NCBI GenBank assembly: GCA_030867685.1
Contig: JAQOWU010000001.1
Location: 1,054,001 to 1,115,855 of the forward strand
Length of the DNA stretch: 61,855 nucleotides
Source of the DNA: Wickerhamiella versatilis
Taxonomy: Eukaryota
Reading direction: 5' to 3'
A program made the translations under genes and the position numbers. The notes below the pieces were generated by a model. It did not search any database. It was not told the origin of the DNA and worked only from the letters and a program-made list of their open reading frames with translations. Below are positions 13,334 to 55,085 of the stretch, piece after piece. Each line of letters starts with the position of its first letter. Within the stretch, counting starts at the first letter, position 1.

Positions 13334-14284
13334 TCAACAAAGAGGATTCAGCCATCTCTCTACCGGATCTTCAGGCTGAAAAGTCGAAAAGTAGTGTGGA
13401 TCAGACTTCATAATGGCCAAGAGGTCCTCAGCTATATGGGCTCCCTCCCTGGTAGGGTTTACCACTGCCAATACGTTATGATCGGGTACGCACCAGTCTG
13501 GAAGGATTCTAGTAAGCCTGCCAGCTTTAATCTCTTCGGAAACTGTCCATTCAGTGCCTTGGATAATGCCTTGACCTTCTATGGCCCACTTGTACACAAC
13601 ATCGACGTCATTGCAAACAAAACTGGGACAAAACCTTGCCTCGAAACTTTTTCCGCTTTGGCCTTCCAATCGCCAACATGCATTCGCGACATCTCTGCTT
13701 TCCTGAACAACACCACAAGAATGCTTCCATAACTGCTCAGGATGACTAGGATTTTCACATTTCGAAAGATAACTGGGGGAAGCGCAAAGAAATCTGTGAT
13801 TGGGGCCAAGGTTAACCTGCTTTTTGTCGGTCCTGCGAGCCTCTCCGAGATAGATTATCAAGTCCCAGTCGGGTTTTGAGAGATGTTCACATGGATTTTC
13901 AAGAAGCACGAGTTGTATTTTAAGACTAGGCCTCATTTTTCTCAAAGATATAACCTTTTTAGCCACGAAATTTTGTCCAAATCCCAGTGGTGCCAGAATT
14001 CGCAATGTTTCGTCTCCTCCACCACGAACACTATTGAGCTCGCAAGTAATACCTGCGATCATAGCTAGCACAGCAGCTCCTCGCGAGGCTAAAAGTACCC
14101 CTGCTTCAGTGAGAGTGTATCCTGTCTGACGTCGCTTAACTAATTGCAACTGTAGCTTGCGCTCCAATTGTGTTAGTCTCTGGGAAACTGCGGGGGCTGA
14201 TACATGCAGAGCATGAGACACTTCTACAAATGTCTCTTGCAGGGCCACAGCCTGGAAGAATTTCATGTCGGAAGAATCCAGCAT
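13334..14284 (-). CDS. Bacterial-type LysR-family transcriptional regulator (CrgA-like)
   Basis: HTH F..VS.ALHVSAPAVSQRLTQLERKL..QLV.R....TLTEAG. Substrate-binding domain motifs PLGFG, CASPSYL, ND...WA.EGQGI, AGRL.RILPDW. ATG at 14284 (the ORF track starts at GTG 14329). Confidence 0.9.
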   Translation of the reverse strand: MLDSSDMKFFQAVALQETFVEVSHALHVSAPAVSQRLTQLERKLQLQLVKRRQTGYTLTEAGVLLASRGAAVLAMIAGITCELNSVRGGGDETLRILAPLGFGQNFVAKKVISLRKMRPSLKIQLVLLENPCEHLSKPDWDLIIYLGEARRTDKKQVNLGPNHRFLCASPSYLSKCENPSHPEQLWKHSCGVVQESRDVANACWRLEGQSGKSFEARFCPSFVCNDVDVVYKWAIEGQGIIQGTEWTVSEEIKAGRLTRILPDWCVPDHNVLAVVNPTREGAHIAEDLLAIMKSDPHYFSTFQPEDPVERWLNPLC

Positions 14285-15350
14285 TCTCAACAAGAAATAC
14301 ACGAAAAGCAGTTTGTTACTAATACTCACCGGGAGACCTTTTAGCTCCCAAAGGGATGGTTCTAGATAACGTCAGTCCCAATTGAAACCCACTGATTGCG
14401 CCACAAAAACTTAGTTATTCAAGCATACCATACATAATTGTTACTATCCTCAACATATTACTTGCAAGCTCGACCTACTTTGCATTGTTTTAGTATCACC
14501 ATATGGAACACAAAGGTCTCTTGGTCTCCAGCTACGTGTTGCTTGTCACATCAATACGTATTTATTCGCCATCATCGATTTTATTGCTTTTCTGAGATTT
14601 TATATGTAGCCTTGCGGACTCTCTGCGTTATATAAGCTTTAAATTGTCGATGTGGTCCAGTGCTTCGTCAACAAGTAGCTGATATAATTGGCTAAATATA
14701 GGCTTACTGGGCTACTGAAAGATTGATATCACTCTTATAGATATAACTGCAAACATTAGGATGACAATTATTAATGTATTCAAGTTTCTCTATTTCAAAA
14801 GGGTGTCCTGCACAAATTATCCACTGTAGCAAGTTCCACAATAATAAGATCAATATCTATCTTGCTATTTCTGTTTAAGTGGATGCATAGTTCATGCTAC
14901 GGGCTATCCTGCCTTTCTATGTCTTCTCAAATTATCTCTTGTCATCAGGGTCAGGGCTAGACAAACACTATGTGAGCAAACGCTTAACTTGCAGTTAATA
15001 TTAATAATATGCAGAAAGTTTTGCCACGATCTAGGTTTCCAGGCGACCAATGGACGGAACTGTAAATAAGTATTTACATAAAAAATTCAACTTAAAGAGG
15101 TATGCCAAGGACAGAGCCGAGACTATTTATTATGCTTCACTGATGAACCAGCAACGATTTGCCTTAACAACAAATATTTATGTGCTATGAATATAACAGG
15201 TTTGTTTTATTTATATCTACTCTTATCTCAAGTTTTCTCTGGAAGCAGTGGCAAAATGTTGGAGAACTCCGATGTTATATAATCTCGCAAGTTTTCCCTC
15301 ATGGTATATAAGCCGCAGCATGACGCACCACTCTCCACAGATTGCAAAAG

Positions 15351-27272: not shown

Positions 27273-27803
27273 CTAGTGAGTCTCGCTAGTGTTTATTTCA
27301 CCGATATATTCAACGGGGAAATCATCAACTCTATTCAGTATAAAAAAGTAGTAATAATTTCCTCCTTGAACAATTGCAGGAAGGCTTGACGTGGTTTTAC
27401 CATTCATGACACCTAAGAGGGTATTGTCATCCACCTTTCGGAAATGGTCGAAAACAGGTATACCGTCGTAGACCATGGTGCCTGACACCTTTCCTCTAAA
27501 CTCAACCATCCATAATGAGGCCTCACCATTGAATTTCGTATCAGCAAATAGCTTATTGTCTTCATTGAAGCATACCAATGGATGCGCATCGAATTTGCTT
27601 GGATACCACTTACCAAACCAGTTCATATCATCCATGGATTTTGTCACCCAATGACCAACACAGTTAATACTAGAACCCTTCCACTTACCAATCATTTCTT
27701 CAATTGTCACTGGGGGTAATTTATCGTAGAATTCGAAAAGTTCCTCGCTTCCATGATATGATTTTTTTTGAATTTCGTTCAACTCACTCTTGTAATTTGT
27801 CAT
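27273..27803 (-). CDS. GXWXG / DUF4334 domain protein
   Basis: LPPVTIEEMIGKWKG, WFGK, ASLWMVEFRGKVSGTMVYDGIPVFDHFRKVDDNTLLGVMNGK. The ATG at 27803 follows a TATATAA. Confidence 0.88.
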   Translation of the reverse strand: MTNYKSELNEIQKKSYHGSEELFEFYDKLPPVTIEEMIGKWKGSSINCVGHWVTKSMDDMNWFGKWYPSKFDAHPLVCFNEDNKLFADTKFNGEASLWMVEFRGKVSGTMVYDGIPVFDHFRKVDDNTLLGVMNGKTTSSLPAIVQGGNYYYFFILNRVDDFPVEYIGEINTSETH

Positions 27804-28198
27804 TGTCTGCTTAGCAAAATTGCAAGCAAGAAAAGTACCCCTTATATAGATCTCCAATGAATAAATTACTAACGTTATACCGTTGCGGCTGTGATTCATC
27901 GGCACTAAGTTGCCGTAATCTGGGCAGAAGAGTATCGACGGAACTTCTCTTATGATCGCTCGTTGTTGAGCAAGACCGTTTTTTAGACTCATATATTTGT
28001 AACCAGGCCTACAATCAATACGTAAAGCTGCTCAATGATTTATGAATTCTATCATCTATAAAATGGTCTCGAAATATGAGACATGGCAATGTAACACTAC
28101 TTACCGGGCCAAGGGTTCGGAAGAAGCCTTTCCGTATCCCGATTTGAGCTTAAATTTCGTAAGCAAAATAAAACTCTCTTTTCGTCCTGGAACATTCT

Positions 28199-29746
28199 AT
28201 GGAAAATAATTCAATGAAAGAGAATTCTCAATCGCCCACTAAGGGCAGTAATTTGGATAGAGTGACTGAAAATATTGCTATTGCACCAGGTCGTTATCTT
28301 CCACCCGTTCCCGAAACGCCGGAAAATGACTACATGGTAGAGTTTCTTGGTCCAGATGATCCGGACAGACCTACTAATTGGCCCTTGGGGAAGAAAACCT
28401 ACCTTTCTGTGGTCATGACTTTGTCCACATTGGTAGTGGCATGGGGCTCTGCGGTATTAGCTGCCGGTGTAGAAGAAGTTGCCGAGCAATTTCACGTAGG
28501 CAGAGTGGTAGCTACTCTTGCAGGAATATCTCTCTATGTAGTAGGATTTGCTGCTGGTCCAGTGGTGTGGGGCCCCAGCTCCGAAATTGTTGGCCGAAAA
28601 CTTCCTCTAGTTTTAGGGCTCTTTGGATTTACATGCTTTACTTTTGCCACTGCCACGTGTAAAGATTTCCAAACATTCGCGCTTTCTCGTTTTTTCATGG
28701 GGACTCTTGGTTCTTGTGTCCTTGTTGTTGCACCCGCCACCATATCCGATTTATTTACCACAAAGACAAGAGGCAAGATTATGGCTATCGTTTCAGCAGT
28801 AATCGTTGCGGGACCAATGATCGCCCCTGTTGTTGGAGGCTATATTGCTGCCTCTTATCTTCACTGGAGGTGGACGATGTATATTACAGGGTTTATGTCG
28901 TCGGCAATCCTTGTTCTCGTAACCTTCACGCAAGAGGAGAGTTTCTGCCCTAGGATCCTCCAGTACAAAGCTAACCGCCTTCGGGAGGAAACAGGTGTCT
29001 GGCCCCTGCACTCGGCTATGGACAAGGAAACTCTGAATGTTAAAAGTATCGCGCAAAAAGTCCTTGTTAAACCTATCAAGATGCTTGTAGTCGAGCCGAT
29101 TCTCCTTCTACTTTCGGTATACATGGGATTGGTATATGGGATATTGTACTTGTGCTTAGAGGCTGAACCTTTAATCTTCCAAGGAGTATACCAATGGAAG
29201 GGAGGCAATGTGTTCTTGCCATATCTCGGTATGGTTACAGGGGCTATCATAGTCGTAATTGTTCAGGTACTCTTCTTTGAGAGAGTATTTTATGACGGAC
29301 TCAAGGCCCGTGGTGTTCCCGTTTGGCCGGAAGGGCGCCTTCCTGCAATGATGGTGTCAGGATTTGTATTCCCCTCAGGAATATTTTTGCTCTGTTGGTC
29401 GGGAGCATACGGGGTACATTGGATAGCACCGACAATTGGACTTGCTTTGATAGGTTTTGGGCTGATAGGAATATTCTTGGCAGGCTTTAATTATATTATT
29501 GATACCTATCTGATGAATGCCGCCTCCGCGCTTGCGGCTAACACGTTTCTCCGCTCAGGAATGGGGGCTGCATTTCCAATATTTGCCACTGCAATGTTCA
29601 AGAATCTTGGAATTCAGTGGGCAGGAACTCTGCTTGGGTGCTTAGCTGCGATATTGGCACCGGTACCTATTCTCTTCTATGTATTTGGTGAAAAGATACG
29701 TGGGGCCTCCAAGCACAGTATGGATCTTTCAGATCTGAAGAATTGA
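28199..29746 (+). CDS. MFS drug:H+ antiporter, DHA1 family (Tpo/Flr1/Mdr1-like)
   Basis: DDPDRPTNW, GP..WGP.SE..GRK, WRW, PEGRL, AASALAANTFLRS. Confidence 0.95.
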   Translation: MENNSMKENSQSPTKGSNLDRVTENIAIAPGRYLPPVPETPENDYMVEFLGPDDPDRPTNWPLGKKTYLSVVMTLSTLVVAWGSAVLAAGVEEVAEQFHVGRVVATLAGISLYVVGFAAGPVVWGPSSEIVGRKLPLVLGLFGFTCFTFATATCKDFQTFALSRFFMGTLGSCVLVVAPATISDLFTTKTRGKIMAIVSAVIVAGPMIAPVVGGYIAASYLHWRWTMYITGFMSSAILVLVTFTQEESFCPRILQYKANRLREETGVWPLHSAMDKETLNVKSIAQKVLVKPIKMLVVEPILLLLSVYMGLVYGILYLCLEAEPLIFQGVYQWKGGNVFLPYLGMVTGAIIVVIVQVLFFERVFYDGLKARGVPVWPEGRLPAMMVSGFVFPSGIFLLCWSGAYGVHWIAPTIGLALIGFGLIGIFLAGFNYIIDTYLMNAASALAANTFLRSGMGAAFPIFATAMFKNLGIQWAGTLLGCLAAILAPVPILFYVFGEKIRGASKHSMDLSDLKN

Positions 29747-30662
29747 AGCACAAGCATCAGGAAGAAAAATAGAAATTTTATAGAGTGGACTTTTTTATCA
29801 GTTTTCCACAAGAAGGTGAGACTAATACAAAAAGTCCATGTCATTAATTGCATAGTAAGATCTTGTCAGTTTTCCGAGACGGTAAGACCTGAATGTTTCG
29901 AAAAGGGAGTAATTACTTAGAACCATCTCGCTGCTTGAGACTGGTTGAATAATTGAAGATAGCATTCTTACTGTTCAGAACTTAGAATAATCACGACGTG
30001 ATAAACTGTTATCGCCATACTTTACTAGCAATTCCCTTAAGGTCACTATTGTCCTTTTTTAGGTTCAGCACGTCATGAGGGTGAATATTATAGCGACCTT
30101 CACACTATCTGAGACTGGTTGGAAACTGCAAGATGACAAATATTACAGGATTAGTCGCAGTTTAAACGTTCATGCTGAGTAATTTCAGATAAGGACTGGA
30201 AGCGAGGTTTCCCCACTAGCTGCATTGTATAAGCGATGTGATAATACAGAAATAGTTGCATTTCTGAAGACACTTCAATAGCATTGTAGTAACAAGCTCG
30301 AAATTTGTAAATATGGAAAGCATTGGGATATTAAAAGCTTCGAATTTGGGTAATGACAACGAATCACCGAAATAAATTAGTATGGCCATTATAGGTGTAG
30401 CAATATCGAACAAGAGAGAATCTGTGGGCACTTAAACTATCTGAAGCGAGAAAACCTACCCGATACCACTTCCGCCAGGAGAAACCTTCCGATAAATCAA
30501 TCTGCATTGCCCCTAAGCATTTCAGTCTCCGCTGACAAACTAGCGAAGATTAGAAATCCAACCGCATGATGTCTGGTGTGACATCACGTGGTATAACGCA
30601 TTTCCTTTCGAAGATATAACATTTCAATCTCGTAAAAGCCACTTGTAGTGTCAACGGCCTGA

Positions 30663-33071
30663 ATGTCTCTTTTTGAGCCGGTGGGTCTAGGTGATGTCGA
30701 GCTAGGCCATAGAATTGTCTTGCCACCACTCACCCGATTGCGAGCCAACGAGAAAGGAGTTCCAAGTGGACTGGATGCGGAGTACTACAGGCAACGAGCC
30801 CAAGCAACCGGAACCTTGCTAATTGCAGGTGCCTTAATCAATGATGATGACGAGGCACATCCGTCGACACCAGGCATATACACTAGTGATCAGATAAAAG
30901 GCTGGAAGAAAGTCACTGCTGCTGTACATCAGCAGAAATCTTTAATATTTCTACAGCTATGGTCGATTGGTAGGTATTCGGCTGGTAAAAACTATGGAGG
31001 TAAAGGTGAGCCAGTAGGTGCCCCAATAGATGAGCTTTCCACAGCGGATATAAGTGATGTTGTCAAGGATCATGTGAAGGCAGCTAGGAATGCTATTGCT
31101 GCTGGATTTGATGGTGTCGAGATTCATGGAGCTCACGGCTGCTTGCTAAATCGATTCCTGTATGACGATAACAGTAGGAATGATAGATATGGTTGTTCAA
31201 TTGAAAACAAAGTGAGGATATTTTTTGACATCATAGACGCCGTATCAGATGCCATAGGGTCCCCAAAAGTCGGATTGCGCCTTTCTCCATTTGATAGCGA
31301 CTATGCCTATGGCCCTATCCCCATATTTTCTTACTTATTAGCAAGGTTGGAACAAAAGAAGAAGGAGGGAAGAGAAATTGCATATGTACATCTCGTAGAA
31401 CCTCGAAATCCAGGCGAGAATTCGGACTTTATCCGCCATATTTGGTCAGGCATACTTATTAGGGCTGGTGGCTTCACTCCAAAGACAGCAGCAGAGGCTG
31501 TGAAGGATGATCCTAAGCTACTGATAGCTTTTGGTAGGTATTTTATATCGAATCCTGACCTTGTAAGGCGCTTGCGGGATAACCTCCCTCTCACCAAATA
31601 CGATAGAAGTACGTTCTACAGTCAGGATGCAAAAGGCTATACCGATTATCCAACTTATGACGAACAGATAGAGCGGGAACGGTTACATCAACCCAAGAAA
31701 TCCCGCCTGCAGAAAAAGCTCATTCTAAATGCGTTTGCGATGACGACGCCAAACCATCTGTCACCCGGTTTATGGAGGCATCCAAGTAGTGACACCTCCA
31801 ATTATAACAAGGTTGAATACTGGGTGAACTTAGCGAAGTTGCTTGAACGGGGGAAATTACATGCACTTTTTATCGCTGATACGCTTGGACCCTATGATGT
31901 ATATGGAGGCCCAAGGAACATTAAGCCTGCTGTCACAACTGGCACTCAGTTTCCAGTTGGTGATCCTGCACTAGCTGTATCTGCAATGGCTGATGTGACC
32001 CAAAAACTTGCCTTTGACGTGACGACAAGCACAACTTATGAGCATCCCTACACTGTAGCTCGAAGGTTTTCGACCTTAGATCATTTGTCAAATGGACGGG
32101 TTATCTGGAATATAGTAACTTCTTACTTAGAAAGTGCAGCCCAAATGTATGGTCTGGAAACGCAGATTGATCATGATGAGAGGTATGGTAAAGGTGAAGA
32201 GTTCCTAGAAGTTTGCTATAAGCTCTGGGAATCCAGCTGGAAGGACGATGCTGTCCTTCGCGATAAAGCTCAAGGGATATTTGCTGATGTGAACAAAGTA
32301 CGACCTATTCATCATGAAGGGAAGTATTTCAAGGTTGATGGTGTGCATATCAATGAGCCATCTCCTCAGCGCACACCTCTACTTTTTCAAGCAGGAACCT
32401 CCAAGCGCGGAAGTGAATTTGGTACAAAGCATAGCGAGCTGATCTTTATATCCGGATTTAATTCTGCTCGTACAGGTCAAACGGTAGCGGGCCTTAGAAA
32501 ACAAGCTGAAGAGCAGGGGCGCCGTGCCGACCAAATCAAGATCGTGGTTAGCGTTGCTTTGATTTTAGGAGAAACAGATGAAGAGGCGCAGCAGAAGTAT
32601 AATGATTTCTTGTCTTATGCGGATGTTGAGGGTGCTCTCACCCTTTTTGGTGGATGGACAGGGAGTGATCTGGCGAAATTTCGTGACGATGATGACTTTC
32701 GTTTTGAAGGTCCGCCCGCCATTCAGTCAACTGTACTTAGTATTGACGATTCCAGACGGTGGACTAAAGCAGATATTGCCAAGGAATTGATTCTTGGCGG
32801 GTTTAGCCGCAAGATAGTCGGTAGCCCAACTACTGTGGCAGATGAGCTGGAGCGTTGGGCGACCGAATCGGATCTTGATGGGTTCAACCTTGCCCATATT
32901 ACATCTCCTGGGTCTTTTGAGGACATCGTCAACTTGCTTGTGCCGGAGCTCCAGCGGCGCGGCATATTTCACGATGACTATGACAGCGCTGAAACCGCAA
33001 GAGGCCAGGTTTTTGGCCATGACCATTTGCCAAGCGAACACCCAGGGTATCAGTACAAGTGGCTTGATTGA
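30663..33071 (+). CDS. Fusion: Old Yellow Enzyme barrel + NtaA/DszA/DmoA-type luciferase-like monooxygenase
   Basis: aa ~1-333: PLTRLRA, GFDGVEIHGAHG, AYVHLVEPR, FGRYFISNPDL, GYTDYP. aa ~350-802: LNAF..GLWRHP, LERG..HALFIAD, STLDHLS.GR..WNIVTS, PSPQRTP.LFQAGTS, PELQRRG. One uninterrupted ORF. Confidence 0.92.
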   Translation: MSLFEPVGLGDVELGHRIVLPPLTRLRANEKGVPSGLDAEYYRQRAQATGTLLIAGALINDDDEAHPSTPGIYTSDQIKGWKKVTAAVHQQKSLIFLQLWSIGRYSAGKNYGGKGEPVGAPIDELSTADISDVVKDHVKAARNAIAAGFDGVEIHGAHGCLLNRFLYDDNSRNDRYGCSIENKVRIFFDIIDAVSDAIGSPKVGLRLSPFDSDYAYGPIPIFSYLLARLEQKKKEGREIAYVHLVEPRNPGENSDFIRHIWSGILIRAGGFTPKTAAEAVKDDPKLLIAFGRYFISNPDLVRRLRDNLPLTKYDRSTFYSQDAKGYTDYPTYDEQIERERLHQPKKSRLQKKLILNAFAMTTPNHLSPGLWRHPSSDTSNYNKVEYWVNLAKLLERGKLHALFIADTLGPYDVYGGPRNIKPAVTTGTQFPVGDPALAVSAMADVTQKLAFDVTTSTTYEHPYTVARRFSTLDHLSNGRVIWNIVTSYLESAAQMYGLETQIDHDERYGKGEEFLEVCYKLWESSWKDDAVLRDKAQGIFADVNKVRPIHHEGKYFKVDGVHINEPSPQRTPLLFQAGTSKRGSEFGTKHSELIFISGFNSARTGQTVAGLRKQAEEQGRRADQIKIVVSVALILGETDEEAQQKYNDFLSYADVEGALTLFGGWTGSDLAKFRDDDDFRFEGPPAIQSTVLSIDDSRRWTKADIAKELILGGFSRKIVGSPTTVADELERWATESDLDGFNLAHITSPGSFEDIVNLLVPELQRRGIFHDDYDSAETARGQVFGHDHLPSEHPGYQYKWLD

Positions 33072-33902
33072 GTCTGGGTGTAGCTAGTCTAAGCTATAAT
33101 CATTTATAGAGATTATAGAGAGTTACATGATCATTAAATCTGTAGCTACATAGTCAATTTGATTTGATAGGTCAAGCTTTCTCGGGAATAGACAGTTCTG
33201 TATATGTATAGTTATCATATAAGAACCGTCTCTGGTCGTCACAGCAGTGACAGTCCACTCTGAAGATTTCCCGTATGTATAATAATGTGCACTTTTTATG
33301 ATACTATATCAGTAGATGAAAATCTCTAGGCTTTTTGAAAGACCCATATTTTTTCTTGGCATGAAGTTAGGATCTTTTATTTGGGGACTCGAAGGAGTAT
33401 TAGAGCCGTCAGACGAATGGATATAGAAAAAAAAACACATTATATTCTACACATGAAAATTCATTGCTCAACTCTGCATTAAAGACAGCCTTCATCATCT
33501 CACGTGTAATTGGTAATGGTCACGTGCCTAGCCGAGACCGTTGGCTTGACTCCAACCGGGGGCTATCTTGCATTGTCCAACCAGTTTGGTGCGGAATATA
33601 TATATATATATATATTGAAACCTCAGCTTTAATTTAGCGACAAAGCTTTGATCGGGGTCCTCTACGTTGAACAATAATAAGGTTCGTGAGGCAATGAAGT
33701 ATAGTCCATAGTCAACATCCAAGCTTCAAAAAAGGGTCAAATCCCCGTCTTCAAAAGTATTTTCTCCGAAATCAAACTGCTCTCATTCGGTTTTACAATG
33801 TTTTTAGCCGCATTATTACAAAGATATGACGATCACGCCATTGAATTTAATAATGGGCCATCAATGCATTTAGTTTAGCGAATTTGTCGACTAGCCCCCA
33901 CG

Positions 33903-35966
33903 ATGTCTGGTCAGAGTGGATCGGCGATCCTAAGTCTAGCTGAAGGTTATGGTGTCACAGTTGGTCTAGGCGTAGCATTTGCCCTCGTTATTGTGCTGGC
34001 GGTCTATCTGCAGAAAGTGTACTTGAGTGAGGATTCTGAGCACACAGAAATGTTTATGGTCGCCAATCGATCTGTTGGTACAGGACTCACTACCTCAGCT
34101 GTGTTTTCTTCCTGGATGTGGGTTAATGAGACTATATACTGTGCTCTTCAGACTTACAATTACGGGATTGCGCTTCCAATTTGGTGGGGTGGAGGACTCA
34201 GTTTCCAGATAGCGCTAATGGCTGTCTTGGGTGTCTTGGCGAAAATAAGAATCCCACATGCTCATACTTCCCTGGAAATAGTGCGAATAAGATATGGGAG
34301 ATTGGGCCATATTGCGTTCATGATCTTATGTTTAGTCTTGAACATACTTGGTTGTTCGAATTTGCTTTTTACTGGATCATCGGTTCTGAGTGCCATGACG
34401 GGTATGCATTTCGTAGCATCTACTATCTTACTACCAGCGGGTGTGGTGGTTTACACCGTACTCGGTGGTATCAAGGCTACTTTTTTGACAGACTTTCTTC
34501 ATACCACCATTGCCTTGATACTGATAATATATTTCACAATTGGAGTACTTACTAGTGATCATGTTGGTGGGCTTTCTGGGCTTTACGACAAATTGGTAGC
34601 TACAGCACCAAATCAATATATCGATGGAAATTACAAGGGCTCGCTTTTGACGTTCAGGTCACAGCAATCTGCCATTTGGGGATTGATGTTGAAGTTCGGA
34701 AACTTGGCATTGGTTGTCATGGATACCTCATTCTGGCAGAAGTCATTTGCTTCGGAGGCAAGGTCAACTGTACCTGCTTATGACTTAGCTTCTATAGCTA
34801 TATTTGCGATACCGTGGGGGCTTGGAACTGTGATAGGGCTGACCTGCAGGGCCATTGAGCTGACTCCCATATTTCCGACTCATGGCATGAGTGCAAAAGA
34901 TCTAGGTAATGGACTAGTCATGCCATACACAGTTTATGCGGTTCTGGGGAAGGGATCCGCAGGTGGTGTCATAGTTCTGATATTCATGGCAGTTACCAGT
35001 AGTCTTTCCTCCACATTTATTGGTGTTGGCAGCATCTTATCGTTCGACCTCTATCGTACGTATTTCCATCCCGCGGCAAACGACAAGCACACTGTAAGAG
35101 CTTCACATATTTCGGTTGTTATATTTGGGGTATTCCTGACAGGTTTTACGATAATGCTCAAATATGTGGGTGCCGATATCAATTGGGTCAATTATTCTTA
35201 CGCTGTAATTACTGTCCCAGGAATCATACCCATAATACTAACACTCTTCTGGAAGGACCAATCTAAATTCGCATTCATTACTTCCATGTACCTAGGTCTT
35301 GCATCTGGATTAGCCGTGTGGCTTTCATTATCTTGGTATATGTATGGTGCTATCAATCTCCAGACAACCCAGCAGCCGGTTGTGTGTCTTTATGGTGCAA
35401 TAACATGTTTTTTCACTCCAGCAATATATTCACTGGTATTTTCTCTTATGAGACCACAAAATTACAACTGGAAAGAGTTTCTGCACCTTGAAACTCTGGA
35501 TGATGTACCCTCCTCTCGGTCAGACGAGGTAGACTCCACAGAGAATGGAGAAAAGGCATTTGAAACAAGTATTGAAGAGGCGAAGGGTACTTCCCACTTC
35601 GATGAATCTTCTGTTTCCAGTAATAAGTTTTTCAAGTATTTCCAATGGGTTACTGCGCCCCAGGAATCTGATAGTTTGCACCCATTTTCTGCTCAAGAGC
35701 TGAAGGAGCTTCGAGAGTGGCTAGTAGTCTCATCGATTTTCTTTGTCGTCATTGTTCTCCTAACGTTCGTTTTATGGCCCATGCCTTTATACCGTAACTG
35801 GATTTTTAATAAGCCCTTTTTTAAGGGATGGATTGTCGTTGCTATTATTTGGCAGTTTTTTGCGCTAGCGGCGGTTGTGGTATTTCCGGTTTATGATGGG
35901 AGACATGCGCTCTGGAAGGGGCTGGTAGGGCTATTAAAAGAGCTGCATCTTAAGAAAAGGAATTAG
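33903..35966 (+). CDS. DUR3-family sodium:solute-symporter-fold urea/polyamine-type transporter
   Basis: E.FMVANRSVGTGLT.SAVFSSW.W, P.AHTSLE..R.RYG, GGIKATFLTD.LHT, LWPMPLY. Confidence 0.9.
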   Translation: MSGQSGSAILSLAEGYGVTVGLGVAFALVIVLAVYLQKVYLSEDSEHTEMFMVANRSVGTGLTTSAVFSSWMWVNETIYCALQTYNYGIALPIWWGGGLSFQIALMAVLGVLAKIRIPHAHTSLEIVRIRYGRLGHIAFMILCLVLNILGCSNLLFTGSSVLSAMTGMHFVASTILLPAGVVVYTVLGGIKATFLTDFLHTTIALILIIYFTIGVLTSDHVGGLSGLYDKLVATAPNQYIDGNYKGSLLTFRSQQSAIWGLMLKFGNLALVVMDTSFWQKSFASEARSTVPAYDLASIAIFAIPWGLGTVIGLTCRAIELTPIFPTHGMSAKDLGNGLVMPYTVYAVLGKGSAGGVIVLIFMAVTSSLSSTFIGVGSILSFDLYRTYFHPAANDKHTVRASHISVVIFGVFLTGFTIMLKYVGADINWVNYSYAVITVPGIIPIILTLFWKDQSKFAFITSMYLGLASGLAVWLSLSWYMYGAINLQTTQQPVVCLYGAITCFFTPAIYSLVFSLMRPQNYNWKEFLHLETLDDVPSSRSDEVDSTENGEKAFETSIEEAKGTSHFDESSVSSNKFFKYFQWVTAPQESDSLHPFSAQELKELREWLVVSSIFFVVIVLLTFVLWPMPLYRNWIFNKPFFKGWIVVAIIWQFFALAAVVVFPVYDGRHALWKGLVGLLKELHLKKRN

Positions 35967-37607: not shown

Positions 37608-38693
37608 TCAGACACCCCTTTCCTCCAAGACACGGCGGACTCGTGGTATTATCTCCCGCCCGTAGTCGATCGCATCGTTAAGATTGTCATAGCCTCTAAT
37701 AGATATGAGGTCAGCACCAAGATCAACATAGTCAAGTATCGAGTCAGCGATAGTCTTTGGAGAACCAACTAGGGCAGTGGAGGCTCCACGGGCATTAGTT
37801 GCCTGGACAGTGGGGTACCAAAGTGCTCGGTCCTGGATCTCCCCCTTTGCAGCAATCTCGAGAAGGCGCTGCGACCCCACATTCTGCGGGGGAGGCGCAT
37901 TTGCGGGTGTTTTAACCAACTCGCCAGCTGCCCGGTTCTTCTTAAGTATCTCAAGCGTTCTATGAGCCTTTTCCCAGGCCAAGTCATCAGTTTCAGCAGT
38001 AATTGGGCGGAATGTAACCCAGATTCTTGGTTTGTCAGTTCTACCGGCCTTCTCTGCCTCCGCGTAGATACGATCAATTTGCTCCTTGGTCTCTTTGAGT
38101 GGTTCACCCCAAAGACCGAAAATATCTGCTAATGACCCCCCGATCCTGTATGCTTCTGGAGACGAGCCACCTACTGAGATTGGGATCTTGCCATTCACAG
38201 GTAGAACCCGATTGCTGAATTGCTTGAACTGATAGAACTTGCCGTCCCAGTCGAAAGGCTCCGATGACTTCCAAGCCCTCTTAAGGATCTTGATGTATTC
38301 CTCTAGACGAGCATACCGCTCTTCCTTGGTCAAGAAGTCGCCCTCCCTAGCCTGCTCGGCATCATTTCCACCAGCAATGAAATGCACGACTGCCCGGCCT
38401 TTGCTGAGCTGGTCTAGAGTAGCAAGTGCCTTAGCGGCCACTGTTGGATATAGGGTGTTGGGACGGAGTGCGACAATGACCTTTAGCTGTTTTGTCACGG
38501 AGGCGATTGTGGCTGCTGTGGTGAAAGGATCAAATCCACCAGAATCATATGGCTGCAGTGTGTAATTAAATCCGTAGTCATCTAAATTACGAGCGTAGCG
38601 GACCAGATAATCGGGGTCCACACCTGCTTTGGGCTGTGGATTGATCTCAGTAGACGCATTCGGAAACGCCAAGCTGATGAATTCAACCGGCAT
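37608..38693 (-). CDS. Luciferase-like (SsuD-like) FMNH2-dependent alkanesulfonate monooxygenase
   Basis: IVALRP, ATLDQLSKGR, EQAREGD..K.ERYAR..EY, VGGSS.EA, WGEPL, TALVGSP. Likely start MPVEF at 38693 (an upstream in-frame ATG lies at 38759). Confidence 0.92.
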   Translation of the reverse strand: MPVEFISLAFPNASTEINPQPKAGVDPDYLVRYARNLDDYGFNYTLQPYDSGGFDPFTTAATIASVTKQLKVIVALRPNTLYPTVAAKALATLDQLSKGRAVVHFIAGGNDAEQAREGDFLTKEERYARLEEYIKILKRAWKSSEPFDWDGKFYQFKQFSNRVLPVNGKIPISVGGSSPEAYRIGGSLADIFGLWGEPLKETKEQIDRIYAEAEKAGRTDKPRIWVTFRPITAETDDLAWEKAHRTLEILKKNRAAGELVKTPANAPPPQNVGSQRLLEIAAKGEIQDRALWYPTVQATNARGASTALVGSPKTIADSILDYVDLGADLISIRGYDNLNDAIDYGREIIPRVRRVLEERGV

Positions 38694-39389
38694 TGTAACT
38701 TTTCTCGTCTTTGCCCTATCTGTAGAATACTGTTTCTGTATATACTCGACCTTAGGCATTTTTAAATGTATCCCACTTTAGTCACAAAGGGATTGCGACA
38801 AAGGCTCAGTGATCACGCCATATCAGATATGTGATGACTAATACATTAAGCTACTGAAGACAACCAACAAGACAGCAAGCTTTACAATTGACGAGTCTTA
38901 ACTCTCCAGCTTTTGCCCCAGACTTATCTTGAATTTATGTGGTTGCATAGTACGTATATACATATACACTGGTCTATCCGGAATTATCTACACGATACTC
39001 AAACTAAGGTTCACGACTTGTTGCAATCCAAACATTTAAATAAAATACCAGCAAATATTTCGCGAATTAAAATGATTATACAGCTATAAGATGATGTTAA
39101 AGACTATGCTGGAGGCACAGTGCAGGAGATAAGACATATTCTCGCGTAATAGCAAATTCAATAGTTGAGGATAAGGAAATAGGTTGTCTAGAAAATCAGG
39201 TAGTAAAACAATATCAGAAATGAAATAAATTGCCGAAATTGTGTTCGTCTTGTCATTTTACAATTGCTTTCAGATATCTGAGAAAGATTCAACGATCTTA
39301 CTGATAATGAGGTTCGTGATGTCACGTGCCATGGGGCAAGACACAGTATTTAGCGTAGGCTCTGCCGATTTCTAACCTCAACCTCGAGA

Positions 39390-40577
39390 ATGGCACCAAT
39401 TTCCACACAGGCTGAAGCTATCCCAAGCGAAGTTGATGGGTCTAAGGCTTCACATGGTCCTATCACTGGTCTAGATATTCAAAGATTGTATCTGGAGGAT
39501 TCGCAGTCGAATTTACTGGATAATTACGAATTTAAGGATTTACTGCCAACCTTTCCTGATCTCAAATGGGAGCCACTCCCTGTTCATGAATACACGGATA
39601 GAGCGCTTAGTGCTGACCCCACGTTCCCCACACTATTCAAAAGTGTGACTCGGGTGGAGCATCTAACCCCTAAATTTGGTTCAGTTCTCCATGGAGCTGA
39701 TCTCTCGAAGCTTTCTGATTCGCAAAAGGATGAGCTCGCACTATTCACTGCTTACCGAGGGGTCGTGTTTTTTAAAGATCAGAGAAACCTTGATATCAAG
39801 AAGCAGTTAGAGTTGGGCCGATACTGGGGGAGATTGCATCGCCATGCTACAACTGGAATCCCCCGAGAGGCTGAAAATGATCCTAACTTGCTTGACGTCC
39901 ATGTGGTATATGCATCGGAAAAGCGCGCAACTAGCCTGGGAGGAGGGTCACCATGGCATTCGGATGTATCATACGAAAAACAGCCGCCGTCGTATACTAC
40001 GCTCAAACTACTTCATGGTCCACCAACTGGCGGTGATACTGCTTGGGGTAGTGCTTATGGTCTATATGACAGCCTGTCCCCCCGTTTCCAACGCTACCTT
40101 GAGGGTCTCACAGCACTCCATTCGGCTGTTGAACAGGCAGATGGTGCACGCAGACTTGGTAAGACTATACGAAGGGAGCCTGTCATTACTGAGCACCCAA
40201 TTGTTCGAACACATCCTGTGACTGGTTATAAAGGGGTGTATGTTAATCCTGGATTCACTCGTCGTATAGTCGGGGTGCCAGGAGCCGAATCTGACTTTGT
40301 GCTCAAATATCTGTTTAAGCTGATCGAGGAAAATGTGACACATACCGCGCGCTGGCACTGGGACCCGCAGGATGTTGCTCTGTGGGATAATCGGTCAACT
40401 GTGCATGCAGCCTCCTACGGTTTTTACCCACATCGCAGGCATGCAGTAAGGGTAACTACCCATGGCGAAGTTCCATACTTTGATGGAGGTAAGTCAGAAC
40501 AAGAAACGATTGATGCAACTCTCGGGCTTCATAGTTTCGAGAAAGATTGTGCCAAACCTCCTGCATTCGCAGACTAG
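39390..40577 (+). CDS. TauD/TfdA-family 2-oxoglutarate-dependent sulfonate dioxygenase
   Basis: RGVVFF.DQ, WHSD, GGDT, HPIVRTHPVTG, WDNR.T.H, R..VRV. Confidence 0.95.
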   Translation: MAPISTQAEAIPSEVDGSKASHGPITGLDIQRLYLEDSQSNLLDNYEFKDLLPTFPDLKWEPLPVHEYTDRALSADPTFPTLFKSVTRVEHLTPKFGSVLHGADLSKLSDSQKDELALFTAYRGVVFFKDQRNLDIKKQLELGRYWGRLHRHATTGIPREAENDPNLLDVHVVYASEKRATSLGGGSPWHSDVSYEKQPPSYTTLKLLHGPPTGGDTAWGSAYGLYDSLSPRFQRYLEGLTALHSAVEQADGARRLGKTIRREPVITEHPIVRTHPVTGYKGVYVNPGFTRRIVGVPGAESDFVLKYLFKLIEENVTHTARWHWDPQDVALWDNRSTVHAASYGFYPHRRHAVRVTTHGEVPYFDGGKSEQETIDATLGLHSFEKDCAKPPAFAD

Positions 40578-44311: not shown

Positions 44312-44806
44312 TATATTGAAGCAACAGCAATTTTAGTTGCAATTAACAATGCCACTCCAAATATTGACTCATGTAGTGTACACTAGCATACCCATTAAGG
44401 TGATGCGTCTGTCAAGATAAGATAAATAAGTAGACGGTTAATAGACCAGAAAAGACGCAGATACTTTCGTATTTGCTGGAAGTTCATATTTATAGTGTAT
44501 CCTAAAGTAATTTATCCACCAAACATAATTCTATGCTTCTATGATCTTGCCATCCTTGTAGTGCATTTACTTCTGTAGATAAGAATCTATGTTGATTATT
44601 AATCGGAGTCCTTGGTTTTCTGTGGGGAAATACGAGGCATCACGCAATAGTGTAGTACAAACCCTTATATCCGTAATTCGAGAACTCTTCATTTCCGGAA
44701 GTAAAGGAAAAACTCTGGAGAGTACTAGATAGAGTTAAGGCTAAAGTTTAGGTCTCGTTCTCAGTGGTGACATATTGGCGAATTGCCTCCAAACAACTCA
44801 ACCGAT

Positions 44807-46120
44807 ATGGCACCTCCAGCAGCTCTCAAGGCAGAGCCAGAACCTACACTACAATCCATTGACTCCAATGCGATTGGCAAGCTAACCTTGAATAGTAGCT
44901 CACCTTCCTATAGAGAGGGGACAAATTCACTCACTATACCCAAGCCGTCACCAAATAATGTGAACGCGGTGAAACATCTTCCAAAGCAAACCAGATCTAG
45001 ATTCCAGCGGCATGGGGTGGACCTTTCAAAAGGTTACCCTGAGTATCCTGAGAACCCTCCGTTTTACTTGGATGAAGGATATGCGATTCGCGGCGAGCCG
45101 TGGACACACATCGAGCGCGGGAAAAATGCAGACCCTGATAAGAAAGCTCTTTTTGACGCGGCTAAGGAGGTAAAACATCTTACTAAATACATCGGAACCG
45201 AGATTGTAGGCCTTCAGATCTCTGAACTTACTGATCAGCAGAGAGATGAATTAGCCCGGCTTATCGCTGAAAGAGTTGTAGTTTTCTTCCGCGACCAGGA
45301 CTTGTCACCCCAGAAACAACTCGAATTAGGCCACTACTACGGTAAAGTTGAGATCCATCCGAAGGTTCCTCACGTACCTGGACTTAATGGAACAACCGTT
45401 ATTTGGCCCAAACTAGCGAATCTCTCAGCGAAGAACAAATTCAGCTTCAAACATCCGGCAGGTACGTCATACTGGCATACCGATCTGGTGCACGAAATCC
45501 AGCCAGCTGGGATCACACACCTCCACAATGATACAATTCCTTCCGTAGGTGGTGACACCGTGTGGGCATCGGGATATGCGGCATATGATAAGTTGTCCAG
45601 ACCTTTCCAGAAATTTCTCGACGGTAAGAAAGCTGTCTACCGGTCCGCACACACATACTTGGACCGCAATGATCCTTTGTCAGGACCTAAATACATTGAA
45701 CGTGAGCACTATCTAGTACGGACCCATCCTGTTACTGCTTGGAAGTCTCTGTTTGTGAACCGGAGCATGACTGTGAGAATTGTCGGTCTCGAGCCAAAAG
45801 AATCAGCTACAATTCTGGAGCTACTCTACGAGGTTTACGAGGGTAATCCAGATATTCAAGTACGGTTTAGTTGGCAACCCACAGTTGAAGGTCTTGGTAC
45901 TTCCGCGTTATGGGACAATCGTATATCCCAGCATTTTGCCGTATGGGACTACGCAAACGAATCTTCTGCAGATGGCATAGAAGATGAAAGTATCGCCCGT
46001 CATGGTACACGTGTTACCTCTCTCGCAGATAAGACTTTTTTGATCCGAATTCGAAATCTCAGAGGGATAGCCTTGGCCTATCGAATCCTTGAACTGGTCC
46101 CATTCATATCTATCTTTTAG
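44807..46120 (+). CDS. JLP1: Jlp1-type sulfonate/2OG dioxygenase; C-terminal tail apparently frameshifted at a T6 run (46036-46041)
   Basis: DLSKGYP, AERVVVFFRDQDLSPQKQL, WHTDLVHE.QPAGITHLHND, WDNRISQH, RHGTRVT. One extra T would give the family-like tail FFDPNSKSQRDSLGLSNP* ending at 46092. Confidence 0.9.
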   Translation: MAPPAALKAEPEPTLQSIDSNAIGKLTLNSSSPSYREGTNSLTIPKPSPNNVNAVKHLPKQTRSRFQRHGVDLSKGYPEYPENPPFYLDEGYAIRGEPWTHIERGKNADPDKKALFDAAKEVKHLTKYIGTEIVGLQISELTDQQRDELARLIAERVVVFFRDQDLSPQKQLELGHYYGKVEIHPKVPHVPGLNGTTVIWPKLANLSAKNKFSFKHPAGTSYWHTDLVHEIQPAGITHLHNDTIPSVGGDTVWASGYAAYDKLSRPFQKFLDGKKAVYRSAHTYLDRNDPLSGPKYIEREHYLVRTHPVTAWKSLFVNRSMTVRIVGLEPKESATILELLYEVYEGNPDIQVRFSWQPTVEGLGTSALWDNRISQHFAVWDYANESSADGIEDESIARHGTRVTSLADKTFLIRIRNLRGIALAYRILELVPFISIF

Positions 46121-48666: not shown

Positions 48667-51072
48667 TTATCGGTTCTCGTATTGTTTCTTTTTGAAAGAC
48701 ACCGAATCAAAGAGTATCTGCGTCCATTCTCTTGGCCAATCGCGTAAGAGTTCATCATCTATTGCCTCTGGACGATTAAGGTAATCGCTTGCAATGAGAT
48801 TTAGGTTTTCAAGGAACAAAGTCCTATCACTCAACGATAGCAGTGAGTGAGCATTTCTTTGACCACCAGGCCGACTAAGTCTCTCTGCTTCCCAATGCTC
48901 CATCAGCTCGCGATTCGGAAGTTTAGCCAATTTATTGAATACGAGTGCAGCCACAAAGGCTTGCTTTTCCCAGGCCGTGAAAGAGGGAGTACCAGTAGGT
49001 GGCCCAACAAAGGCAATATGATTGGAGTATATGTCGAACGTATGCTCGAAAATACCTGGTATATAATGAGCACCACCAGGAGATGAATAGGGTACCTTTT
49101 TGTGAGATTCTGGGTGGCGCCGATCCAAGTTCTGGAGAAACGGGAAGTGAAAGCGGTAGCCCGTTGCCAATATAATAGCATCAACAGTTTCTCCAGCATC
49201 AGTGTCCGAAAAATAAACGGAATTCCCAGCTACTTTTACCAAACTGCTTCGAAGTTCGACTCCTTTGCTCTCCACAGATCGTCCATAGGGGTGTTCCGAC
49301 CTTTGAGCAAGGAAAATCTTTGAAGCCGCAGTTCTGAGCTGATCCTTGATATCTAGACCACTTTCCCGTGTACCTACAACAAGAACCTTCTTATTTCGAA
49401 ATGGCGTGGGACCACGATAATCCGCGGAGTGAATCAGTTTTCCTGGAAACTTATCTAACCCTGGCACATCGGGTACTCGAGGCTCCCAGTTGTGGCCTAC
49501 CGCAACAATCAAGAAATCATAGTCCTTTTCCTCCCAGAGATTCTCGGATTCATTCACTTTTTGGCAGGTTATGATTCTGAATTTGGGATGATCCTCAGAC
49601 CCATGATTTTTTACATCCTCCACGGATGTGTTAAAATGAATATACTTTTCATATGGTTTTATTGAATTATCAACACGCTCCGCAACTTCCTCGCCAGAAA
49701 TAAAAAAAGGGCTTTCTTTTTGCAAGTCTTGTTTGAAGGCAGTAAAGCCAAACATAATCTGCTGGGGTACATTTGTCACAAGACCTGGATAAACAGGTGA
49801 TTCACTGTATTTCTCCCTAGAATTGCTGGGTAGTTTTGAAGGAAAGGGTCCATTTGGTATCTGCAAAGACTTTTTCGGTTGCCTTAAGTCTTCAGAATCT
49901 GAGAAATCTTTTTCATTTCTTTTTGCCCATATCCCCCCAGGTTTATCTCGCCGCTCAAAAATATCAATTTGATGATGAGGAAACTTAAGAAATGCTCTGG
50001 CTGAGGATATTCCAGATGGACCTGAGCCAATTATGGCTACACGTTTGGGCTCAAGTTCATAAGATGGCGACGGGAGCTGAGAGCCGAATGATATATAGTT
50101 CGGAGCTCCATGCGCTTGTCCATACGGAAGCTTTTTAAATGGCTCTGTCGGCTTACCTTGCTCCAAAAGTTGCCTCAAACTGGGATTGCTGATAAAATGA
50201 TCCGAAAAACTTACTGCTTGCGCAGTATTTAATGCCTCCCCGATCAAAGAGGGATCTGGCAAAGACCATATTACTGGGAACCGTTTTGAAGGAAGTTTTG
50301 TTCCAAATGGTAGTCTCAAATATGCAATCTTGATACCTAGAGAACTTAGATCAACTTCTCGGTCCAGGTAAACACCCACCCTACCCGGAAAGATGCCCGA
50401 TAAGGCTGAAATTGTCTCTTTCAGGAGTCGTAGTGGGTCAGCATACTTATCACTACGCAAATTGCTCTGAGGATCCAGAAATTGACCTATGAGGGAATTA
50501 CCCCCAGCATTCACCTCTACTCCATCGGCACCTGAAAGTTTTGCATTTTGTGAGCTGATGGCAAAGCTGTCGATGATTCGCGCTATCTCCTCTGCAGTAA
50601 GCTCTCGAGGAATACTCGATTTATCACACCATTCGTCATTGAGCTCTACCACTGGCGTAGTGGTAGATGGACCTACGGTCTCAGTGTCCTCAAAAGATGA
50701 GGGAGTGAGTTTATCGTAGTAATAGACCTGGTTGCGCAACAGAACACCTTTAGTAGTGCTTCGCCCAGGATGAAATAACTGAATATAGAACTTGCCACCT
50801 GATTGGTGAATTAGGTCAACTATCGCCTTCCACGCTGCTACCTGTTCCAAACTTGCAATGAGAGGAGCGAATAACGATGTGCCAGCACTATATCCAACCC
50901 CCACAGGTTCTGAAATGGTGAGCGACTTACCTTGAGACCTTTCAATGTAAAACTTTCTGGCTAATTGAGATGGTATTCCCCAAGGAGCACGTCGATTATC
51001 AGAAGATGCGTGAACAACGCGATTATCGACTACTTGGCCACCAATTTCAATTTCTGAGAACACAGCGGCCAT
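48667..51072 (-). CDS. Fusion: degenerate Old Yellow Enzyme barrel + class B flavin-containing monooxygenase (FMO)
   Basis: N-term NRVV.A, WK.IVD.IH..G.KFYIQLFHPGR, PRELT.EEI, GADGVEVN, QFL...SN.R.DKY, FISNP. C-term AIIGSGPSG, FPGKLIHSADYR (FxGxxxHxxxY), VVGTRESGLD, ATGY. Confidence 0.88.
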   Translation of the reverse strand: MAAVFSEIEIGGQVVDNRVVHASSDNRRAPWGIPSQLARKFYIERSQGKSLTISEPVGVGYSAGTSLFAPLIASLEQVAAWKAIVDLIHQSGGKFYIQLFHPGRSTTKGVLLRNQVYYYDKLTPSSFEDTETVGPSTTTPVVELNDEWCDKSSIPRELTAEEIARIIDSFAISSQNAKLSGADGVEVNAGGNSLIGQFLDPQSNLRSDKYADPLRLLKETISALSGIFPGRVGVYLDREVDLSSLGIKIAYLRLPFGTKLPSKRFPVIWSLPDPSLIGEALNTAQAVSFSDHFISNPSLRQLLEQGKPTEPFKKLPYGQAHGAPNYISFGSQLPSPSYELEPKRVAIIGSGPSGISSARAFLKFPHHQIDIFERRDKPGGIWAKRNEKDFSDSEDLRQPKKSLQIPNGPFPSKLPSNSREKYSESPVYPGLVTNVPQQIMFGFTAFKQDLQKESPFFISGEEVAERVDNSIKPYEKYIHFNTSVEDVKNHGSEDHPKFRIITCQKVNESENLWEEKDYDFLIVAVGHNWEPRVPDVPGLDKFPGKLIHSADYRGPTPFRNKKVLVVGTRESGLDIKDQLRTAASKIFLAQRSEHPYGRSVESKGVELRSSLVKVAGNSVYFSDTDAGETVDAIILATGYRFHFPFLQNLDRRHPESHKKVPYSSPGGAHYIPGIFEHTFDIYSNHIAFVGPPTGTPSFTAWEKQAFVAALVFNKLAKLPNRELMEHWEAERLSRPGGQRNAHSLLSLSDRTLFLENLNLIASDYLNRPEAIDDELLRDWPREWTQILFDSVSFKKKQYENR

Positions 51073-53800: not shown

Positions 53801-55085
53801 CTAATCGCGATTCCAAGAAGATCCTGCTTTTTCCTTTTCCTTTGCTGCATTCGCCAGGTCCTCTGTGCGGAGCTTCGAATTTGGATCCAAAAATGGTCGC
53901 TCACCTAGAGAAAGTGCACGTATACCTACGCGGGGTAGAATATCGCGGTTGGGAAGTCTGAGGTCGTGAATTATCGTGTGATAAGTTGATCTATTGTCCC
54001 AAATTGCGATATCATATTTGTTCCACTTGTAACGCAGTTGAATCTCAGGGCTGCTCTTCAACAAGTCGCTCAAATACCTTTTGACATAGTCGTTTTCTTG
54101 ACCACTGACTTCGTTGATCTTAGTGAAATGGTGTCCGATTCCGAATATAGACTTCCAGCCGGTAACTGGATTGGTACCAACTATTGGATGAGTAGCTGTT
54201 AGCTCGGTGCCTACGTTTTCCGGTGCACCTCGCTCTTCAGACCAGAAAGGAACCTTCTGTTTCGCTGAGACATTAGCAAATTGCGGCTGAGAGTACTCTC
54301 CTGTAAGCTTTTCCAAGTATGAAAGAAACTCGGGACTGACTTTTTCAGCCAATCCATAGCCAGATGCCCAGATTGTATCGCCGCCACTGCCCCCCTACAC
54401 TACCTGAATGGACTTGGGAAAGTTCACTTTCATCAGCCGAGCTGCTAGGGGTCTTTGTAAGCCTCAAACCAGCATAACTAGCTGGCACAGGCTCAAAAGT
54501 GATATCACTGTGGAATCCTCCCGCGGGATCCCACCCAGATGAACGACTGATGCCTTTGAATTATTCCGCAAGCAGTTCAGAGTCAAGCACATGGACTTCT
54601 GGAATCGCTTTCCCGTTGTGGGGATCAATTGCAGAATTAGTAAATGATGTGGGGTGAATGTGGAGACCTGAAGAAGATGGTTTATTTGCGGCTCGACCCA
54701 GAGCGTCCACCAGGCGTTTCTGCTGGTCAACGGATAGATCATACTGATTCTTGAAAAAGACCACACCTCTTTCGCTAACCGTTATAGCTAGATCACGCAA
54801 GAGCTCTTCATCCTGTAGTATGTCTGTTAGCCTGGCTTCTTCGTAGAATTTTCGGCCCAGACCTGGCGTCACTTCAGTAAACTTGTACTTTCCACTTAGT
54901 TTTCCCGAGTGTTTCAGAGGCTTGTAATTTTTGAGAACCGATGGGCCTTCTTTAGGCGTATGCGCCCAAGGAGATGGTCCTACCAGCTTAGATTTGGGGT
55001 TGTTCCTGAATGGGGTAGGATCTTCTTGATAACTAACAAATTTAAGCGAGTCTAAAGGAGAATCAACCGAGAGAGCCGGTGCCAT
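53801..55085 (-). pseudogene. Third TauD-family dioxygenase, interrupted
   Basis: RDLAITVSERGVVFF, an in-frame TAA at 54561-54563, FHSDITFEPVP, a +1 shift in a G6 run (54390-54395), then GGDTIWASGY, HPIV.TNPVTGWK, WDNRSTYH. Confidence 0.88.

Follow-up and report, generated by a model that had tools for sequence, protein, structure and literature searches.

Two-component flavin monooxygenases rely on a separate reductase, and their use in biocatalysis and desulfurisation is held back because free FMNH2 is lost to oxygen. Dimethyl-sulfide monooxygenase (DmoA) and long-chain alkane monooxygenase (LadA), two luciferase-like monooxygenases (LLMs), are stand-alone oxygenases that are supplied by such a separate reductase. 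The styrene monooxygenase StyA2B, which is FAD-dependent, of a different fold and equipped with a C-terminal reductase of the HpaC type, places oxygenase and flavin reductase in a single chain with no Old Yellow Enzyme (OYE) involved; the physiological role of OYEs themselves has long been debated. The accessible portions of two publications describe StyA2B as a natural, self-sufficient fused two-component flavin monooxygenase (PMC6017014, PMC4460183). An association of OYE and LLM genes is described in excerpts of PMC4518038, where the two recur as a pair of separate genes in Firmicute SirTM/GcvH-L operons, in a context of lipoylation and ADP-ribosylation, and the role of this pair is called “elusive” in the available text of PMC11490716. 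Here, we analyzed a stretch of 61,855 nucleotides from Wickerhamiella versatilis (contig JAQOWU010000001.1, positions 1,054,001 to 1,115,855; hereafter the window), in which the gene at 30663..33071 on the forward strand fuses an OYE barrel in front of an LLM that resembles DmoA and LadA in sequence and fold over its whole length. Fused, self-sufficient two-component flavin monooxygenases are already known; an OYE as the N-terminal partner of an LLM appears to be new, and no OYE::LLM fusion is described in the literature searched.

The gene is a single uninterrupted open reading frame (ORF) of 802 codons beginning with ATG, and the in-frame fusion put forward in the original prediction was borne out by a Pfam domain scan, in which Oxidored_FMN matches residues 2-310 (E 6e-75, profile positions 1-341 of 342) and Bac_luciferase matches residues 374-732 (E 2.2e-45). 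The short charged linker expected between the two halves is also in place: it reads DEQIERERLHQPKKSRLQKK, comprises 20 residues and differs in length and sequence among eight fused proteins (the window protein and seven relatives). An AlphaFold model of the whole protein has a mean predicted local distance difference test (pLDDT) score of 89.3 and a predicted template modelling score (pTM) of 0.64, with low pLDDT in the linker and values below 50 at residues 318-338 and 340-347. In a structure search, no solved chain spans both halves, the top TM-score normalised to the query being 0.54. A domain of NAD(P)H-flavin type and an oxygenase lie within one conserved chain. The best single explanation, to which we give slightly less than even weight, is that the remodelled OYE barrel serves in cis as the NAD(P)H:flavin mononucleotide (FMN) reductase of a DmoA/LadA-like monooxygenase, both residing in a single polypeptide. 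We further propose, tentatively, that in a clade of yeasts a DmoA/LadA-type monooxygenase has acquired an OYE as its dedicated NAD(P)H:FMN reductase, tethered to it covalently; this would be the first natural OYE-type reductase component of a two-component flavin monooxygenase. The reductase reading is supported by loop deletions shared across the family, by relaxed catalytic positions combined with a kept FMN site, and by a parallel fusion involving PF01613.

The closest solved relatives of the N-terminal half are S. cerevisiae OYE3, OYE2 and OYE1 (E ~1e-85), to which it is 41-44 % identical in a structure-based alignment, and the OYE motif quoted in the original prediction is present, with LEQKKKEGREIAYVHLVEPR aligning to the corresponding segment of OYE1/2/3. 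Only OYE-type models match this half (no match to PF01613 HpaC-like, PF03358 SsuE-like, Fre-like or nitroreductase-like families was found), and the best OYE-type NCBIfam model, NemA, scores 233 bits, below its cut-off of 403. For residue counts, the eight fused OYE halves were aligned with the 120 nearest stand-alone OYEs, and the 79 columns with at least 95 % identity across these 120 were taken as canonical. These nearest relatives form a flat mix of fungal and bacterial sequences that are only 40-46 % identical to the OYE half, so that no recent parent is visible. Like OYE1/2/3 (PF00724), the window protein has a full barrel and retains 71 of the 79 canonical columns, FMN contacts included; it differs from them in lacking ~21 and ~12 loop residues and in carrying Cys at the position of the proton-donor Tyr and His at that of Asn194.

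The case originally made for repurposing had rested on the active-site hexamer HGAHGC, in which the His pair was said to be kept and the proton-donor Tyr to be replaced by Cys. The reading of the window protein itself was accurate, and the Tyr is found in 120/120 stand-alone OYEs. Across the fused family, the first position of the pair is stable, with His in 7/8 proteins at the position of H155 (120/120 in stand-alone OYEs), but the second is not: at the position of H158, the fused proteins carry His (3), Phe (2), Tyr (2) or Asp (1), against Asn (112), His (6), Thr (1) and Ser (1) in the stand-alone enzymes, so the statement that the His pair is kept holds for only three of the eight, the window protein among them. 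At the position of C160, Tyr is kept in five fused proteins, with Cys in two and Thr in one, and Cys is found only in the window protein and its twin at 96 % identity. The Tyr-to-Cys replacement cannot have repurposed the OYE domain because five of the eight fused proteins keep Tyr, and it was rejected as a family-defining change. The residues of alkene reduction are thus relaxed in the fused family and not in the 120 stand-alone OYEs.

The flavin site, in turn, is largely kept. The window protein retains T24, Q98, R206 and R292 (OYE1 T37, Q114, R243 and R348), which we take to be the equivalents of FMN contacts in OYE1, and among the eight fused proteins these are found in 6/8, 8/8, 7/8 and 7/8, respectively; seven of the eight OYE halves retain 68-71 of the canonical columns (86-90 %). 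Features that were absent from the original prediction define the family better than the Cys does, namely two loop deletions common to all members, the change E56G and an R267 that does not vary. A deletion of 21 columns follows residue 114 in 8/8 fused proteins, and a second, of 12 columns, follows residue 252 and is complete or partial in 8/8, with no column filled in more than 3/8; the deleted segments presumably correspond to the active-site capping loops of OYE1 (~123-160, and the loop with P295/F296). R267 is invariant in the eight fused proteins, Arg being found there in 11/120 stand-alone OYEs, and at position 56, seven of the eight have Gly where the stand-alone OYEs have Glu in 120/120. 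A kept flavin site, drifting alkene-reduction residues, lost loops and fixed changes together form the pattern expected of an OYE barrel that would carry out NAD(P)H-flavin chemistry and no small-alkene reduction. The Y196F variant of OYE1 reportedly retains a normal reductive half-reaction, which is consistent with the flavin-reductase reading.

The oxygenase half can be assigned to the NtaA/DmoA family, with residues 355-775 matching the NCBIfam model TIGR03860 at 488.8 bits (cut-off 279.7; model positions 1-416 of 422). Among solved structures, DmoA (6ak1, 479 bits, residues 2-453) and LadA (3b9n, 427 bits, residues 2-434) match over their full length, and BdsA/DszA (226 bits), NtaA (180) and SsuD (53) match far more weakly. 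Superposition of the model gave TM-scores, normalised to the target, of 0.91 for DmoA and 0.96 for LadA, at identities of 48 % and 45 %. At what we take to be the position of LadA His138, the fusion has Tyr, as does DmoA. This is the more conserved half of the protein, with 65-98 % identity among the eight and dense invariant columns, and by homology it would use FMNH2 from a reductase to oxygenate its substrate.

The fusion is not confined to the window. A search of 5.8 billion clustered proteins returned seven further fused clusters with both Pfam domains (P0001-P0007) among the 120 matches listed, the other 113 being LLM-only. These clusters, at identities of 96, 76, 62, 62, 61, 61 and 62 % and lengths of 769-814 aa, comprise 27 member sequences from Logan, ENA and JGI, and the junction is in frame in all of them. 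When 1.84 billion representatives clustered at 50 % identity were scanned with phmmer, P0004 was the sole match to both halves among the 150 proteins listed, which extend down to ~249 bits. In a tree of 62 LLM sequences, the eight fused LLM halves form one clade (SH-aLRT 100) that is sister to 21 stand-alone Pezizomycotina LLMs (support 99), which points to a fusion that arose once, is old and has been kept since. A metagenome scan for orthologous DNA found 51 loci, none of them fused, whose best stand-alone LLMs are 52-56 % identical.

The integrity of the junction was further examined in public sequencing data. The stretch is contained in 20 public runs from 10 studies, mainly food-fermentation, food and sediment metagenomes, and contigs of three of the four runs compared, from separate studies, bridge the domain junction; no indels within the gene downstream of 31415 are listed in these contigs. 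One contig of 2428 nt spans 30616-33043 without a gap, beginning 47 nt before the ATG and stopping 28 nt before the end of the stop codon. It comes from a run that is RNA only by guess and gives a weak hint of a single transcript; none of the runs containing the stretch is on record as RNA, which counts neither for nor against expression as one protein.

An analogous fusion gives a reductase role of the OYE half its most direct support. Among the 120 relatives listed, 26 clusters (P0264 and 25 others) carry Flavin_Reduct (PF01613) N-terminal to an LLM that, in the P0264 family, is 50 % identical to the LLM half of the fusion; those with names belong to basidiomycete yeasts (Trichosporon asahii and two Cutaneotrichosporon species) and to the chytrid Fimicolochytrium jonesii, with many others on unnamed contigs. 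The arrangement is the same, namely an N-terminal NAD(P)H-flavin domain, a linker and a C-terminal LadA/DmoA-like LLM, but the reductase domain is HpaC-like and not an OYE. The LLM halves of this family fall in a separate clade with actinobacterial LLMs, and the PF01613::LLM fusion is therefore independent of the OYE::LLM fusion, so that fungi would have placed a flavin-reducing domain before this kind of oxygenase at least twice. No publication on PF01613::LLM fusions was found in the literature searched. The clusters in question are P0264, P0409-P0432 and P0491; compared with the listed stand-alone LLMs, of which the named ones are actinobacterial, they show 60-68 % identity in the LLM half. 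The proposed repurposing from ene-reductase to NAD(P)H:FMN reductase thus stands in part: it gains from the relaxed ene-reductase residues, the FMN contacts kept in 7/8, the PF01613 analogue and the absence of classical reductases among the scanned ORFs of the window, while the argument from Tyr-to-Cys and the His pair fails at the level of the family.

A working mechanism can be outlined on this basis. FMN held in the OYE barrel would be reduced by NAD(P)H, and the loss of the capping loops would open the active site such that FMNH2 is released or electrons are passed to a second FMN. The flexible 20-residue linker would then allow short-range transfer of FMNH2 to the tethered LLM barrel, where a flavin-peroxide would form and, as homology to DmoA suggests, oxygenate a C-S or related substrate to sulfite, a thiol or an aldehyde. 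The protein would then be a two-component flavin monooxygenase that is self-sufficient and serves the yeast in organosulfur scavenging.

Several observations weigh against the assignment of a reductase function to the OYE half. The two-barrel arrangement is not confidently placed by the structural model, as its pTM indicates. Of the bacterial loci that hold the closest LLMs (45-53 % identity; the best 80 of at least 582 matches), 1/80 has an OYE gene no more than 6 kb away and 8/80 have a PF01613 reductase, and no OYE or reductase gene adjoins the stand-alone relative in the one eukaryote-like locus examined (L001). No OYE is reported as the reductase partner of an LLM in the literature searched. 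The second position of the His pair presumably also binds nicotinamide in OYE1, and Phe at this anchoring position, as in 2/8, may weaken the use of NAD(P)H. Furthermore, the OYE half diverges faster than the LLM half in 27/28 pairs, with one tie. The most pointed case is cluster P0006 (members P0138-P0140), which lies within the window protein's own sub-clade of the LLM tree. Its OYE half retains 40/79 canonical columns, has lost H155, R206 and R292, carries extra deletions and reads GGEDKT in place of HGAHGY, while its LLM half is still conserved, at 65-77 % identity to the other fused LLM halves. In this lineage, the oxygenase appears to persist without an active OYE half, which suggests that an active OYE half is not indispensable; this fits the known reductase promiscuity of two-component systems and equally a dispensable appendage. 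Finally, a second protein in the window (P0121) carries a degenerate OYE-like barrel on an FMO-type monooxygenase, so that N-terminal OYE barrels can persist without evident redox function.

These points bear most directly on the explanation that the OYE half, under relaxed constraint and perhaps still FMN-binding, serves chiefly as an appendage for structure, oligomerisation or regulation, and that the LLM is fed FMNH2 by unlinked cellular reductases, as stand-alone fungal LLMs must be. The decay of the P0006 OYE half next to a conserved LLM half, the faster evolution of OYE halves in general, the drift at their catalytic positions and the barrel of P0121 would all be accommodated, and FMN reductases such as Lot6p are conserved across fungi according to the accessible part of PMC5857272. 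A pure scaffold would not be expected, however, to keep 86-90 % of the canonical columns, including the FMN contacts, in seven of eight proteins, and R267, E56G (7/8) and the shared loop deletions look like remodelling and not like decay. We therefore consider an appendage rather unlikely, though it is the explanation that survives best after the reductase reading.

A bifunctional enzyme strikes us as improbable. In such a protein, the OYE half would itself use NAD(P)H to reduce an intermediate or side product of the pathway, for instance an activated alkene, a quinone, a nitro compound or a disulfide, and the fusion would couple consecutive or protective steps instead of supplying flavin. To our knowledge, DmoA- and SsuD-type reactions yield no obvious enone intermediate. 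The barrel is complete, with the identities to OYE1-3 and to the 120 nearest stand-alone OYEs given above, and H155 is kept in 7/8 and the Tyr at position 160 in 5/8; yet the second, substrate-anchoring position is Phe, Tyr or Asp in 5/8, and the proton donor is lost in 3/8, the window protein included, whereas both positions are conserved in at least 118/120 stand-alone OYEs, and the substrate-pocket loops are deleted in 8/8. OYEs are linked to redox and thiol homeostasis in excerpts of PMC11490716, which would be in keeping with a reductive role of this sort. An artefact, whether from two neighbouring genes joined by mistake during sequencing or assembly or from an ORF that does not yield a single protein, is very improbable and the assembly variant was rejected, since the architecture recurs with an in-frame junction in seven other clusters at 61-96 % identity and the junction is bridged indel-free in contigs of 3/4 runs from different studies.

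If the reductase reading is correct, the fusion would serve as a “Rosetta-stone” clue, suggesting that some stand-alone OYEs, whose role is debated, and the OYE/LLM pairs of Firmicutes supply flavin to luciferase-like oxygenases. A conserved fusion with drifting ene-reductase residues and a kept FMN site provides a concrete, testable hypothesis on the role of OYEs, and a single chain in which nature has joined two well-behaved TIM barrels would be a ready test case for flavin hand-over. The fusion also bears on the FMNH2 source of the fungal PF00296 enzymes that are induced by sulfur starvation, as reported in the available sections of PMC5857272, PMC11502921 and PMC13170222.

Table 1. Coordinates of the fusion gene, its parts and selected neighbouring features within the window.
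Feature	Position	Strand	Remarks
OYE (Oxidored_FMN) barrel	30663..31658	+	Residues 1-332; two loop segments lost; confident predicted fold
Active-site hexamer HGAHGC	31125..31142	+	H155, H158 and C160 correspond to OYE1 H191, N194 and Y196; aligns with OYE “HSANGY”
Charged, Lys-rich linker	31659..31718	+	Residues 333-352, from the translation
NtaA/DmoA-family luciferase-like FMNH2-dependent monooxygenase	31719..33071	+	Residues 353-802 and stop codon
Major facilitator superfamily (MFS) transporter, upstream neighbour	28199..29746	+	MFS_1, E 1.4e-33
TCACGTG (Cbf1-type E-box)	30584..30590	-	73 bp upstream of the fusion ATG
Sodium:solute symporter family, downstream neighbour	33903..35966	+	Promoter TCACGTG at 33500 and 33520
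Stand-alone SsuD/SfnG-like LLM	37608..38759	-	23 % identical to the fused LLM half; TIGR03565 185 bits, below cut-off 518
TauD-family dioxygenase	39390..40577	+	
Second TauD-family dioxygenase	44783..46120	+	
TCACGTG sites (examples)	30584, 33500, 33520, 39322, 42748, 48022, 48041, 55162, 60619		

The gene content of the window is fungal and yeast-like (Zn2Cys6 factors, an alternative oxidase, P-type ATPases, long intron-free ORFs and ~43 % G+C), and from ~28 kb to its end runs a series of genes typical of organosulfur scavenging. In addition to the genes in Table 1, among them the stand-alone SsuD-like enzyme that had been noted originally, this half holds a 2OG-Fe(II) oxygenase fragment, four more MFS genes (five in total), an arylsulfotransferase and the second OYE-like fusion. 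The claim that the window holds no separate flavin reductase also stood up: FMN_red, Flavin_Reduct and Fre-type families are absent from the 29 of 32 ORFs of at least 150 aa that were scanned with Pfam, a scan that does not cover intron-split genes, and the three remaining ORFs sit inside or overlap larger ones. Between the genes, the window likewise holds no ORF of 80-149 aa that starts with ATG.

The regulatory context was investigated through two motifs. TCACGTG, which we take to be the Cbf1 site of the sulfur regulon, gives 16 strand-matches at 12 sites in the window against 4.5 expected, a number reached in 0/100 shuffles, and lies mostly in promoters of the sulfur half at 28-61 kb, such as those of the symporter, the divergent LLM/TauD pair and an MFS gene. 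The CTGTGGC core, presumably a Met31/32-type motif, is not enriched (7 matches against 5.4 expected, with 28/100 shuffles reaching 7) and is absent from the fusion promoter. The fusion gene thus has a Cbf1-type TCACGTG in its promoter and clusters with sulfur-scavenging genes. In C. parapsilosis and C. albicans, PF00296, TauD-family and FMO genes are reported to respond to sulfur starvation with strong induction (PMC11502921 and PMC13170222), and the accessible text of PMC5857272 treats the fungal PF00296 enzymes as uncharacterised, with their FMNH2 source not known.

The second OYE-like fusion of the window, P0121, is an 801-aa protein encoded at 48667-51072 (-), in which an N-terminal OYE-like barrel is joined to an FMO-type flavin monooxygenase, an enzyme that works without a separate reductase. 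The barrel (residues 3-333) is 21 % identical to the OYE half of the fusion described here and has lost the equivalents of H155, H158, R206 and R292; the best protein-atlas score of P0121, 0.81, is a lead only. According to excerpts of PMC13170222, FMO genes are part of the sulfur-limitation response of C. albicans. Elsewhere, the search of representatives brought up five proteins of 720-1013 aa (P0262, P0315, P0318, P0320 and P0352) that have at least two separate Oxidored_FMN matches and no other Pfam family, and look like OYE-OYE tandems.

Other features of the window were noted in passing. A GXWXG/DUF4334 protein is encoded at 27273-27992 (-), immediately before the MFS gene on the upstream side of the fusion. 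A TauD fragment at 53801-54352 (-) covers profile positions 138-251 only and an MFS fragment at 55273-56334 (-) covers profile positions 114-346 only; these may be split genes, pseudogenes or intron-containing genes. A LysR regulator of bacterial type (HTH_1 and LysR_substrate) is encoded by an intact 331-codon ORF at 13334-14329 (-), with an atlas score of 0.98 to bacterial LysR clusters (automatic taxa Bacteria 100 %) and with TtdR and a choline-sulfate regulator as its best NCBIfam matches, both under cut-off. This gene looks out of place, the rest of the window being fungal, and may have come by horizontal transfer.

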